From the NCBI GenBank assembly GCA_051747585.1, contig JBNJGH010000002.1:13291-77290 (forward strand): a stretch of 64,000 nucleotides of DNA. The letters are read 5' to 3'. Below, in pieces: positions 37,019-59,920 of this stretch. This stretch comes from Candidatus Rifleibacteriota bacterium (GTDB taxonomy: Bacteria; Muiribacteriota; Ozemobacteria; Ozemobacterales; Ozemobacteraceae). The notes under the pieces are model-generated. The model saw nothing but the letters and a program-made list of their open reading frames with translations. It ran no database searches and had not been told where the DNA came from. Positions within the stretch are counted from its first letter, which is position 1; every line of letters starts with the position of its first letter. The translations under genes and the position numbers were made by a program.

Positions 37019-37300
37019 TTACTTACCCTTGGCAACCATTTCTTTAAGTTCTTTACCAGCTTTAAACTTAACAACTTTTTTAGCTGGAATGCTGATGGTT
37101 TTTTTGGTCTGAGGATTAACGCCTTTTCTTGCTGCACGTTTTGCAACTTCAAAAGAACCAAAACCGATCAACTGAATTTTTTCGCCTTTTTTAAGGGTTG
37201 CTTTGAAGGTATCGAGCATAACTTCGAGAGCATCCTGGGCAGTAGCCTGATTAAGGTCAGCATTATTAGCAATAGCTTTTACTAGATCCGCTTTATTCAT
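37019..37300 (-). CDS. hup: DNA-binding protein HU
   Basis: MNKADLV, GFGSFEVAKRAARKGVNPQT, IPAKKVVKFKAGKELK; AAGGAG RBS before 37300. Confidence 0.96.
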   Translation of the reverse strand: MNKADLVKAIANNADLNQATAQDALEVMLDTFKATLKKGEKIQLIGFGSFEVAKRAARKGVNPQTKKTISIPAKKVVKFKAGKELKEMVAKGK

Positions 37301-37339
37301 CTGAAAAATCTCCTTCTTGATAGTGAATTTGTTGAGCTG

Positions 37340-37369
37340 ATTATAATTACCGTTAAACGCTGTTGTCAA
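37340..37369 (-). promoter_or_regulatory. Sigma70 promoter of the HU gene
   Basis: TTGACA-18 nt-TATAAT on the minus strand. Confidence 0.75.
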
Positions 37370-37709: not shown

Positions 37710-38065
37710 CACTAATTCTCAAACAATTATTATTAGCTGGTTACCAAAAGTTCTGGTATTCTTTCTTTCTGTCAAATATAGAATTTTAACCACTGAGAGC
37801 ACCAAGGACACCGAGCCGATTTTAAAATCTTTTTCAGCCTTTGTTCCCCACAACAACAAACTCTTATAAAAGCACCAGTGTTTTTATAAGAGTTTGTTGT
37901 TGTGGGGAAAGCCTGGCGGCAAAGCCGCCGGCTGATTGTCCATTCTGGACAATCCAAGGCTGAAAAAGATTCTCTGTGTAGCTCTGAGAGCTCTGTGGTT
38001 ATTTTCTTTGTTGCTTTAAGGCTTGGTTTACAAACAATCTGATAGTCTCTTACCGAGAATTGCTA
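37710..38065. mobile_element. MITE-like structured element, family 2 copy 1
   Basis: Inverted homologue of 59383-59753 over the full length; nested hairpins; end TACCGAGAATTGCTA. Confidence 0.8.
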
Positions 38066-38147
38066 TAAATTGACTCAAATAATCAAAAAGTGATAAGAAA
38101 CTTATTTGCACACTGTTTTTTAATCATTGCAAAAGGACTTAAAATAT

Positions 38148-39989
38148 ATGAAGGAGCGTTGTTCTTTCATAATAAAAGTTTTTACCTTCTGGTTGATATT
38201 GTTTTGCTTTTATCGGCTACTTTTTGTTGCCTACAACCATGCTTTTCTTGATGAAATTTCATTAGGAACTTTTGCGGGTATTTTTCTCCATGGCCTCTAC
38301 ATGGACAGTTCAGCAACGGCCTGGATTACCTTTTTTCATATAGTTTTACTTCCTGTTTCTTTATTTTCAAAAAGGGTGTTGCTACTTCTGAATAGAATGC
38401 TTACTATAAGCTTGATTTGTATAACCAGCTTTATAGCTGTTGCGGACATGCAGCTTTTCAAGTCCTGGGGTTCAAGAATGGACTCCCTTGTAATAGACTA
38501 TATTGCCAACCCAAACGAAGCATTTGCTGCATCATCGGCTTCACCCATTTTCCTACTGGTTGCCCTGGCTGTTTTAATCATAAGCCTGTCGATGACAGCC
38601 TATATTAAGCTGGTTGAAAAATCTCTGGAAAAACTTTCATCTTTTAAGCTAATTGAACTGGCAGTTTTTACTTTTCTGATCGCAGTTCTTGGAACAATGG
38701 GACGTGGCGGGTTACAACCGATACCAATAAATAGCAGTTTTGCCTATTTTTCTACTCATGACTTTGCCAATCAGTCAGCAATTAATGTATCTCATAACTT
38801 TTTTGAAACAATTTATCGTGATTATTACAAAAATAGTCAAGGCTACCACTACGTCGACAATAATTTAGCAGCAAAGATTTATAACGAAAAGTATTCTGGT
38901 CGTTTTGATTCAGATTTTCCACTACATCTAAATTCTACTCAACCGAACATTATTTTAATAATTTGGGAAAGCTTGTCTGCAGATGCTGTCGAGACACTTG
39001 GCGGATATAAAGGTGTTACACCCGGCCTTGAAAAATTAATTGAGCAAGGGCTTCTCTTTTCCAGAATATATGCATCAGGTGACAGAACCAACAATGGCTT
39101 ACCAGCTATTTTCAGCGGTTATCCAGCCCAGCCCAGAGGTGCTATCATAAAAAGTAATCGCAAAATTGCAAAACTACCATCTTTATCTAAAAGTCTTAAG
39201 AAAGCCGGTTATCATTGCTCATTTTACTACGGTGGCGACCTCACTTTCGATAATATGAAAGCTTATTTAATCAGGAACCAGATAGATAAGCTTATTGGTG
39301 GCGAAGACTTTCCTGCGAATCTTGCGAAATCGCAATGGGGAGCTCATGACCATGATGTTTTTGCCAAACTTCTACAAGATATAAAAACTTATAAATCACC
39401 TTTTTTTACGACTATTCTTACACTTAGCAGTCACGAGCCATTTGACGTTCCAAGGCAAAGCAATTTCAAAGAAAGTACTAAAGAAAGTAAATTTAAAAAT
39501 TCTTTATATTACACTGATCAAACTATTTTGCAATTTATTGAAACTTTAAAGACAATGCCTGTTTATGATGAGACCCTGATAATAATTACTTCTGACCATG
39601 GCACTTCAAACTTTGAAAGATACCACAGATTCTCGCCCGGCAAGAACCATATACCCATATTGTTTCTTGGCGGAGCATTAAATGCGAGGGGAAAAGTAAT
39701 TGATACAATTGGCTCACAGCAGGATTTGGCAGCTACGATTTTAAAGCAGCTGCAACTGGATGTTTCTGATTACCGTTTCAGCAACAATCTTCTGAGTAAC
39801 AAAAAAGAATCTTTTGCTCAATTTTTTTTCAATGATGGTTTTACCTATTTAAATGAACGGGGCTATCTTGCATTTAATAATTCTTCAAAATCAATTATTC
39901 ACCAAGACAATGAAATGACAGATAAAGATATAAATACCGCCAAATCAATCATGCAGTTAACATTCAATGACTACTTGAACATGAAATAA
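38148..39989 (+). CDS. LTA synthase family / sulfatase-like membrane protein
   Basis: Five N-terminal TMs, RGGLQ, PNIILIIWES, SGDRT, WGAHD, LSSHEPF, SDHG. Confidence 0.92.
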   Translation: MKERCSFIIKVFTFWLILFCFYRLLFVAYNHAFLDEISLGTFAGIFLHGLYMDSSATAWITFFHIVLLPVSLFSKRVLLLLNRMLTISLICITSFIAVADMQLFKSWGSRMDSLVIDYIANPNEAFAASSASPIFLLVALAVLIISLSMTAYIKLVEKSLEKLSSFKLIELAVFTFLIAVLGTMGRGGLQPIPINSSFAYFSTHDFANQSAINVSHNFFETIYRDYYKNSQGYHYVDNNLAAKIYNEKYSGRFDSDFPLHLNSTQPNIILIIWESLSADAVETLGGYKGVTPGLEKLIEQGLLFSRIYASGDRTNNGLPAIFSGYPAQPRGAIIKSNRKIAKLPSLSKSLKKAGYHCSFYYGGDLTFDNMKAYLIRNQIDKLIGGEDFPANLAKSQWGAHDHDVFAKLLQDIKTYKSPFFTTILTLSSHEPFDVPRQSNFKESTKESKFKNSLYYTDQTILQFIETLKTMPVYDETLIIITSDHGTSNFERYHRFSPGKNHIPILFLGGALNARGKVIDTIGSQQDLAATILKQLQLDVSDYRFSNNLLSNKKESFAQFFFNDGFTYLNERGYLAFNNSSKSIIHQDNEMTDKDINTAKSIMQLTFNDYLNMK

Positions 39990-58671: not shown

Positions 58672-59307
58672 CTATTTTTCTTCTTTTTCAGAACCAGTTT
58701 TCATATCTCCTGCAGGCACAGCTTTTTCTACCACAAAATATTTTAAAACCTGATTCATCGCAGACTCTACATAGTAACCGGTCAACATAACCAAACCATC
58801 GAGTAATTTTTCTTTTCTTACAATTTGAAGCAATGTCAAATTAGATTTTAAAGGAATTCTTTTTTTATCTTCGGTTTTAAGTACCCAGCGAAAAAGATAT
58901 CTGCGCCTTTTAACCGGATGTTTTTCTGGAACAATCATACCCTTAATTTTTTCAATCTTTACTTCTTCTTCTCGATTGGCCAGAGATTCGTCGCTCTTCA
59001 TCAATGCCGGTTGCAAAGCAGGAACCTTTTCAAAGGTTACGGGTTTAACAAGGCTCATACTCGCAACTTCTTCCAGATATTGACTACCGGAAGATATCAT
59101 ATCGATATCTTCGGAATCATTTTCAAACTTGATTTCTTCAGGTATTACCACACTGGTAGCAATTGTTTCTTCGGGTCTTATAAGCTCAATTGAAGCTGAT
59201 GCAAATTGCGCTTTACGAATATCTGTTTCTGCATCGAGAGGATAAATTGAAAAAACAAAAACCCAAAGCAAAACAAATAAAAGCCAGTTGCCCGACAAAT
59301 TTTTCAT
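58672..59307 (-). CDS. Exported hypothetical protein
   Basis: N-terminal signal/TM; GGGAG RBS; long ORF heading the uvrC operon. Confidence 0.65.
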   Translation of the reverse strand: MKNLSGNWLLFVLLWVFVFSIYPLDAETDIRKAQFASASIELIRPEETIATSVVIPEEIKFENDSEDIDMISSGSQYLEEVASMSLVKPVTFEKVPALQPALMKSDESLANREEEVKIEKIKGMIVPEKHPVKRRRYLFRWVLKTEDKKRIPLKSNLTLLQIVRKEKLLDGLVMLTGYYVESAMNQVLKYFVVEKAVPAGDMKTGSEKEEK

Positions 59308-59382
59308 AAAAAACTCCCGTAATTAATCAGAAGCTTATAATATCATCTTTAAGACTATCTTCCAATAATAACTGTATATAGG

Positions 59383-59753
59383 TAGCAATTCTCGGTAAGC
59401 GACTATCAGCTTTTTTGAAACAGATTAAGCCTCACGTCAAGCCTCAAAGCCCCCCAAAGAAAATAACCACAGAGCTCTCAGAGAATCACGGAGAATCTTT
59501 TTCAGCCATGGATTGTCCGGATGGACAATCAGCCGGTGGTTTCACCGCCCGGCTTTCTCAGCCACAGCAAAGTCTCAGAAAAACACCTGTGCTTTTCTGA
59601 GACCTTGCTGTGGCTGAGAACAAAGGCTGAAAAAGATTGGAAAATCAGCTCAGTGCACTCTGAGCCTCCGTGGTTAAAATTCTATATTTGACAGAAAAAA
59701 ATAATACCAGAACTTTTGGTAACCAGCTAATAATACTTGACCGAGAATAGCTG
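59383..59753. mobile_element. MITE-like structured element, family 2 copy 2, with a 9-bp target duplication
   Basis: TIRs TAGCAATTCTCGGT / ACCGAGAATAGCTG; flanks GTATATAGG (59374-59382) and GTATATAAG (59754-59762). Confidence 0.85.
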
Positions 59754-59920
59754 GTATATAAGCAGGGCAATCACTTTAGACACTCAAACCATCATTAATT
59801 CATATATTACAGTTTTTTTGACGAGATTTCGGTATCGCTATCGACATCGGAATCGAAACCAGAGACAGAGTGTGAGATGCTTTTTTTTAATTCAAGTCTT
59901 TAATTATGATGCTGAAATTG

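Follow-up and report, generated by a model that had tools for sequence, protein, structure and literature searches.

The repeat at positions 59383..59753 of the window, i.e. of the whole stretch of 64,000 nucleotides analyzed here, is best read as a non-coding MITE of about 370 bp (the term being used in the sense of the definition excerpted from PMC2779907), which is present in about 100 copies in a Riflebacteria genome. As a pattern in the sequence, it is well supported that the element mostly sits 16-17 bp upstream of a predicted -35 hexamer, with one of its ends facing the promoter. The explanation in which we have good confidence is that of a MITE with ISNCY-type ends, which would be moved in trans and guided to promoters via RNA polymerase, and whose long hairpin would be kept paired by template switching.

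Two copies are located in the window. Copy 1 (59383..59753, plus strand; 371 bp) was delimited by its sequence, its ends and the alignment of copies and has intact ends, and copy 2 (37710..38065, minus strand; 356 bp), which was placed by alignment with copy 1, has a degenerate right end. The preliminary description had presented them as inverted copies with nested stems; they are 80% identical over 368 bp, and the stems are present in both copies in the arrangement given there. Copy 1 is bounded by a left terminal inverted repeat (59383..59409, plus strand, TAGCAATTCTCGGTAAG...), which is the promoter-adjacent end, and a right terminal inverted repeat (59727..59753, minus strand), which reads CAGCTATTCTCGGTCAA inward. 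On the plus strand, it is flanked by the two copies of a 9-bp target duplication, GTATATAGG on the left (59374..59382) and GTATATAAG on the right (59754..59762), which match at 8 of 9 positions. Between end segments of about 75 bp each lies a palindromic core of about 210 bp (59465..59675, plus strand) with the outer arms AACCACAGAG...GTGGTT. The core contains an invertible cassette (59494..59638, plus strand), which is enclosed by 14-bp inverted repeats (59494-59507 and 59625-59638) and comprises two short hairpins (59510..59554, plus strand) and a 32-bp long hairpin (59555..59620, plus strand; 37844-37909 in copy 2), the latter consisting of a near-perfect, variable lower stem and a conserved loop-proximal part. 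Both window copies are predicted to fold very stably (z scores of -12.4 and -11.9, equaled by 0 of 100 shuffles). No open reading frame of at least 100 aa overlaps either of them, as had been noted before. A search of the window against Rfam gave no family at the gathering score, and relaxed thresholds applied to the element returned only generic or miRNA-type hairpin noise far below that score. Copy 2 lies between the divergent genes for HU (37019-37369) and a sulfatase (38127-39989) and is without a clean duplication. A short tandem repeat of the GGTATCG/ATCGAC type is located just past copy 1 (59833-59860), and such a repeat adjoins other copies too.

The host genome searched, placed in Riflebacteria by what related proteins of its relatives are named, comprises 4.1 Mb in 330 contigs with a completeness of 93.6%, contigs shorter than about 2.5 kb being absent. 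The search for further copies suggested in the preliminary description yielded about 100 in this genome and, by BLASTN, none in 40 relatives. The closest relatives of copy 1 are a 96% identical copy on contig C18 and a 97% identical partial copy on C71. In total, 48 copies of 345-380 bp were aligned, 45 full-length copies span 345-385 bp, and matching of the end motifs with up to 3 mismatches detected 109 left and 76 right ends; many contigs of the assembly break within MITE sequence. The ends are imperfect terminal inverted repeats starting with CAGCAATTCTCGGT..., and among the 48 copies with paired flanks the 9-bp duplication is perfect in 16, whereas no other length between 5 and 12 bp gave more than one perfect duplication. 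With up to one mismatch, it is found in 24 of the 48 copies (mean of 0.05 in 2000 shuffles). The terminal repeats, the 9-bp duplications, the roughly 100 sites and the cognate insertion sequences (IS) in relatives described below together substantiate the earlier designation of the repeat as mobile. The exact 26-nt end motif is absent from the species collection, and none of 86 further genomes from the phylum contains the loop motif of the long hairpin; as far as these searches reach, the MITE is restricted to its lineage.

The core is 200-219 bp long in 96 of 100 pairs of outer arms in this genome, and these arms carry conserved mismatches that have not been corrected. The cassette has the orientation found in copy 1 in 36 of 94 units and is flipped in 58 (25 vs. 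52 in a set of 77 copies). Independently of the cassette, the long hairpin has its loop in either orientation, all four combinations being present (13, 8, 19, and 26 copies). The loops of the short hairpins seldom flip (TGT 36 vs. ACA 1; TTT 22 vs. AAA 0), and thus flipping tracks arm length. Contigs from four independent sediment metagenome runs carry the MITE, and the strand-switch joints at the cassette borders are found in these as well.

The long hairpin had attracted attention because differences between the two window copies are mirrored in the opposite arm. The eight mirrored differences of the 32-bp arms are real (positions 4, 6, 7, 9, 13, 18, 22, and 24); a ninth, one-sided difference (position 17) and a different 2-nt loop had been left out. 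The statement that the residual mismatches read as G-U on the plus strand of copy 1 and the minus strand of copy 2 proved wrong, since they are A.C there and G-U only on the opposite strands. Among 77 copies, the near-loop wobble is A.C on the element strand in 32 and G.T in 34, and it occurs on either strand because both the cassette and the loop of the hairpin are present in two orientations. The other mismatches of the long stem (18 of 1752 pairs) are A.C in 7, G.T in 6, and of another kind in 5 cases, so that G-U wobble reveals no strand preference in the covarying stem; these counts omit three copies in the wrong orientation, one without the loop motif and one further copy. The corresponding numbers are 25 G.T vs. 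10 A.C in the 14-bp repeats and 41 A.C vs. 23 G.T in the outer arms. The new substitutions counted among the 38 copies of a young subfamily comprise 12 distinct mirrored and 5 one-sided ones, two poorly registered stems having been omitted from this analysis and from that of the stem types, and the 12 mirrored substitutions would be hard to obtain by two independent mutations each. The available excerpts of two reports describe arm homogenization and spacer inversion as products of template switching in quasi-palindromes (PMC8604942, PMC8794818). The caveat in the preliminary description that template switching also produces compensated changes is thus upheld, flipped spacers and mirrored substitutions being its marks, and it appears likely from the copies compared that the hairpin arms stay matched by copying one from the other. 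Several features qualify this picture. Identity is lower in the lower stem than in the flanks (0.55 vs. 0.76 for 190 pairs of older copies and 0.69 vs. 0.80 for all copies), and such faster divergence is unexplained by passive arm copying alone. The near-loop mismatch persists in 66 of 77 copies, and the mismatches of the outer arms are conserved rather than corrected. The opposite wobble leanings of the 14-bp repeats and the outer arms, and the better fold of the minus strand described below, likewise speak against a purely passive process. More generally, perfect compensation in a long hairpin can stem from DNA copying and does not imply a functional RNA.

The relation to promoters becomes apparent when the sequences outside the left end are read outward. 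Among 124 such flanks, the first letter of TTG is at position 17 in 64 cases and at position 18 in 13, and TAnnnT is found at positions 40-41. Of the 107 strong left ends, 68 have TTG at position 17 or 18 (background 3.9%), and 56 combine TTG with TAnnnT 16-18 bp further on (background 0.4%). For right ends, the values are 10 of 76 for TTG at these positions and 6 of 76 for the full -35/-10 spacing. At 89 of 109 left ends, a gene starts that is directed away from the MITE, with a median distance of 76 bp, compared to 31 of 76 right ends. At copy 1, a predicted sigma70-type promoter (59337..59365, minus strand), defined by its match to the consensus, is located 17 bp outside the left end; it is composed of the -35 hexamer TTGGAA (59365-59360), a 17-bp spacer and the -10 hexamer TATTAT (59342-59337) and faces an open reading frame of 211 aa without a Pfam match (58672-59307) as well as uvrC. 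Copy 2 is off the spacing rule, having no TTG at 17-18 bp. At four sites (contigs C49, C64, C44, and C305), copies are arranged in tandem 9-10 bp apart, and tandem elements with one 9-10-bp spacer are also found at L341 and L343 in another genome (G087:C8 and C9), as expected for repeated insertion into one site. From the insertion sites of the MITE, about 70 promoters can be predicted in a phylum without cultured members.

The end motif of the MITE was found in 17 of 36 genomes of the family, and in one relative (G022) the same ends bound an IS of 1.56 kb with a transposase of 439 aa. The ends of this IS share a 14-nt core with the left end of copy 1, and the right end of copy 1 is identical over 17 nt to its downstream end. 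Which end of the MITE resembles the downstream end of the IS differs between relatives, being the left end for a second relative (G003) and the right end for G022. The IS of G022 is without a matching target duplication; IS copies in a third relative (G006) have perfect 9-bp duplications. The G022 transposase has the invariant residues D131 and D220 and the motif RWxIE340, shows weak matches to DDE_Tnp_1 and IS4-type profiles only, and gave no match in a sequence-profile search of solved structures. Its predicted structure (pLDDT 87) is closest to Tn5 (E 1.5e-9, compared to 7e-3 for the IS256-family ISCth4), and according to this model the cognate transposase is a Tn5-fold DDE protein with a beta-rich insertion. 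At least 6929 homologs exist; the sequence identity is 36% over 432 aa to an ISNCY transposase (P0324) of Microcystis PCC 7806 and 33-36% to ISNCY-annotated proteins of Gloeothece, Acaryochloris, Nostoc, and Microcystis. ISMae2 is placed in strain PCC 7806 in the available portions of two articles (PMC2779907, PMC11448079). The PCC 7806 protein is presumably ISMae2's own transposase. Members of the ISMae2-like group have CAG termini, a 9-bp duplication and a length of 1.4-2.4 kb. The cognate IS elements share with this group the transposase homology, a 1.4-1.8-kb single-ORF organization, the CAG ends and the 9-bp duplications, whereas the MITE of the window carries no transposase.

The cognate transposase was not found in the host assembly, which is devoid of contigs below about 2.5 kb, so that a collapsed IS could be missing from it. 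The nearest homolog in this assembly (C307:1097-2630; L039) has 511 aa and 24% identity, has no MITE-type ends, and stands behind an open reading frame of 308 aa. Sequencing runs aligned to the G022 IS yielded short conserved pieces only and no cognate transposase.

The spacing rule extends to IS elements well beyond the host genome. The transposase loci considered, 183 in total, came from relatives, plasmids, genomes and metagenomes; both ends and a duplication matching at 8 or more of 9 positions were recovered for 47, and 45 of these are unique. All 45 start with CAG, which the end search scored higher, and are 1.37-1.77 kb long; in 23 of them, one of the two flanks has TTG at position 18 (background 3.9%), as is the case in 16 of 32 when one IS per type is counted. 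Among the most distant elements, TTG is present in only 3 of 11. When seven genome sets are pooled, TTG is found in 61 of 124 cases, compared to 2 of 44 at the other ends, the patterns of the favored ends having been chosen after the first viewing of the end data. The individual values are 8/11 for G003, where 20 of 32 end sites were sampled, 6/7 for G090, 7/8 for G092, 8/8 for G094, and 4/9 for G095; with both ends pooled, they are 21/57 for G087-89 and 7/24 for G017, where 20 of 39 sites were sampled. In G090, G092, G094, and G095, whose elements have unequal ends, the favored end lies downstream of the gene encoding the transposase, and in G087, where the ends are near-equal, either end faces the promoter. 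The rule was seen in Riflebacteria, Desulfobacterota, Gammaproteobacteria, and Spirochaetia.

Taken together, promoter targeting is well supported as a pattern in these sequences, and as a mechanism it is a proposal. An ISMae2-like Tn5-fold DDE transposase would probably move the MITE in trans and would probably be guided to its site by RNA polymerase sitting at a sigma70-type promoter, the whole promoter being recognized via the polymerase rather than the letters TTG alone. Polymerase template switching during DNA synthesis would account for arm-to-arm copying and spacer inversion, and the core of about 210 bp would be an older REP-like passenger captured between IS ends. Since landing just upstream of the -35 hexamer would spare host promoters, a high copy number would be reachable. 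We also lean, if only slightly, towards a wider proposal, according to which a cross-phylum ISNCY/ISMae2-like family has independently evolved docking to the sigma70 holoenzyme, its MITEs ferry palindromic cassettes to hundreds of promoters, and the targeting is convergent across unrelated transposases.

The site preference could also arise if the transposase itself recognized the sequence TTGAC at a distance of about 17 bp from the cut site, genic insertions being purged and an intergenic TTGAC often being a real -35 hexamer. This is rather unlikely, even though TTGACA is the commonest hexamer in the cross-phylum set (8 of 24), where -10 boxes show no enrichment (present in 4 of 24 flanks with TTG and in 8 of the other 66), and the elements of G092 have TTG in 7 of 8 but a -10 box in 0 of 8 cases. 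What argues against direct reading is that the -10 box occurs at the fixed distance also where TTG is missing, namely at 16 of 39 left ends in the host genome (background 5.9%) and at 18 of 63 ends in the other genome sets, and that only 8.7% of AT-rich TTG sites genome-wide (3687 of 42612) have TAnnnT at the proper spacing, compared to 52 of 68 beside the MITE. Alternatively, the mover could be a Mutator-like transposase of the p-MULT3 or p-MULT4 type (ISLre2, ISKra4). For TnGBS/ISLre2 (p-MULT3) and ISKra4 (p-MULT4), the excerpted text of PMC3942029 describes insertion 15-17 bp upstream of the -35 hexamer with 8-9-bp duplications and puts forward a contact of Mutator-like elements with RNA polymerase as proposed and unproven; the spacing, the duplication length, the terminal C and the orientation rule observed here agree with it. 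Nevertheless, this origin is very improbable: IS elements with these exact ends encode the Tn5-fold protein, which has no Mutator-family match at E≤1. In addition, the host genome has no match to PF06782, PF00872, NF033529, or NF033572, a result that is weak alone as two controls were silent, and PF06782 was absent from 61 genomes, the control again being silent.

Two further readings concern the palindromic interior. The preliminary description had favored the view that structure rather than sequence is kept, as in a mobile structured RNA or an ssDNA/cruciform element. Formulated accordingly, the core or the whole element would be an RNA or a single-stranded intermediate selected for pairing, most likely of the minus strand, e.g. 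a read-through terminator or an RNase III substrate. For each of the 45 full copies, the minus strand indeed has the more stable fold (mean of -164.7 vs. -148.3 kcal/mol; z score of -13.1 for copy 1), the stem stays near 32 bp while its sequence drifts, the scaffold and the outer-arm mismatches are conserved, and upstream genes read into 31 of 76 right ends. The strand difference, however, is mostly compositional, as in 10 copies the shuffles differ likewise (-90.9 vs. -76.1 kcal/mol) and the excess is -78.8 vs. -73.6 kcal/mol. Furthermore, the long stem lacks a wobble strand preference, mirrored changes outnumber one-sided ones in young copies, neither an Rfam family nor the loop motif in the other genomes of the phylum was found, and as cassette and loop both flip, one strand is unable to keep one RNA structure. 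For the long hairpin, the claim is not supported in view of the unbiased wobble, the flipped spacers and the excess of mirrored changes, and for the MITE a structured RNA is unlikely. The second reading takes the core as an independently mobile REP/REPIN-like unit with its own single-strand nuclease, the flips and the fast stem being by-products and the IS ends only carriers. It is compatible with our preferred explanation for the shell, i.e. the IS ends, and is possible, if doubtful. In its favor, for 29 of 100 arm pairs the 170 bp to either side are free of IS ends, with unrelated flanks in some of these and two long hairpins in some, the IS shell holds other palindromic cargo as well, a profile search of the genome detected one Y1 (HUH) transposase gene (a Y1_Tnp match at a contig end), and in one case a stem type has been swapped into an otherwise young copy (C305). 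On the other hand, many of the 29 retain shell remnants or sit at contig ends, no version with an open reading frame and no GxxExxY (PF13366) gene was found in the genome, and the stem variants match nothing beyond the repeats.

With regard to known systems, the TnGBS/ISLre2 and ISKra4 elements likewise have one end facing the promoter, or either end if the repeats are near-perfect as in G087 here, in so far as the excerpts of PMC3942029 describe it; unlike them, the elements analyzed here have a transposase with a Tn5/IS4-like rather than a Mutator/IS256-like fold and occur in other phyla, so that they are not members of these groups. That a Tn5-fold family obeys the spacing and orientation rule of the Mutator-like elements would make this rule convergent, would offer a second, small, single-protein system for testing the polymerase-tethering model and might provide a compact enzyme for promoter mapping or safe-site integration. 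The Correia, ERIC, and YPAL-type elements are bacterial MITEs. With such MITEs, the present one has in common a length below 600 bp, multiple copies, terminal inverted repeats, the lack of an open reading frame, a strong fold and lineage restriction; it differs by the combination of an IS shell with a palindromic core that is also found alone, by two nested levels of flipping and by the fixed promoter spacing. REP/REPIN sequences are dispersed intergenic palindromic units with conserved bulged arms, and the core is likewise dispersed, intergenic and palindromic with conserved bulged arms, but without the GTAG/CGTC tag. Arm homogenization, apparent compensation and spacer inversion are shared with the template switching in quasi-palindromes covered by the excerpts of PMC8604942 and PMC8794818, and here they are seen at two nested levels in a set of about 100 paralogous copies. 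None of the three components, namely MITEs, template switching and promoter-upstream insertion, is new in itself. A promoter-upstream rule for the ISNCY/ISMae2-like group was not found in the literature searched, which covered few subscription journals and no ISfinder and included parts of PMC9208149 and of an IS1202 preprint.

Several observations on the interior of the element may be added. Two candidate origins for its parts were rejected. The CACAGAG arms, which we take to resemble a GxxExxY cassette, were considered as derived from it, but the genome has no PF13366 gene and a literature search gave nothing relevant. The variable stems were considered as guides or captured host sequence; the 42 stem types have no match outside the repeats at up to 2 mismatches, matches at contig ends or in incomplete copies being set aside. 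A codon-like pattern in the right arm was spotted by eye. At C52:1298-1556 and C92:8176-8438, a short hairpin has given way to another long one, whose loop is the same and whose stem differs. In C305:150-521, flanks of the young subfamily (identity of about 0.9) surround an unrelated stem type (0.47), which suggests cassette exchange between copies or an assembly chimera. In place of the core, the IS-end shell encloses other palindromic or short tandem cargo at C7:4581, C14:23740, C25:12276, C45:18564, C128:9241, C203:1377-1731, C207:2250, and C239:2336; judged by these sites, the shell would capture several REP-like repeats.

Group II intron ends lie within MITE copies at C136:1-100, C142:7780-7882, and C35:30385-30509. 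The junctions (two 3' and one 5') coincide at one position, which lies in the core's 3' outer arm, and this suggests a hairpin-targeting intron; the host genome contains two RT genes. The cognate IS of G006 (L031/L049; C13 and C41) is interrupted near its 3' end by the apparent start of a group II intron, and a perfect 9-bp duplication is common to its two halves, which lie on separate contigs. A type similar to the 511-aa homolog on C307, with CAGCAAYAAAGAG ends (L038, L052), also has TTG at position 18. Other Riflebacteria (G017 L233-L252; L018, L020, L026, and L029) possess their own MITEs of 50-290 bp, which agree with the present one in their ends and are unrelated to it in their interiors.
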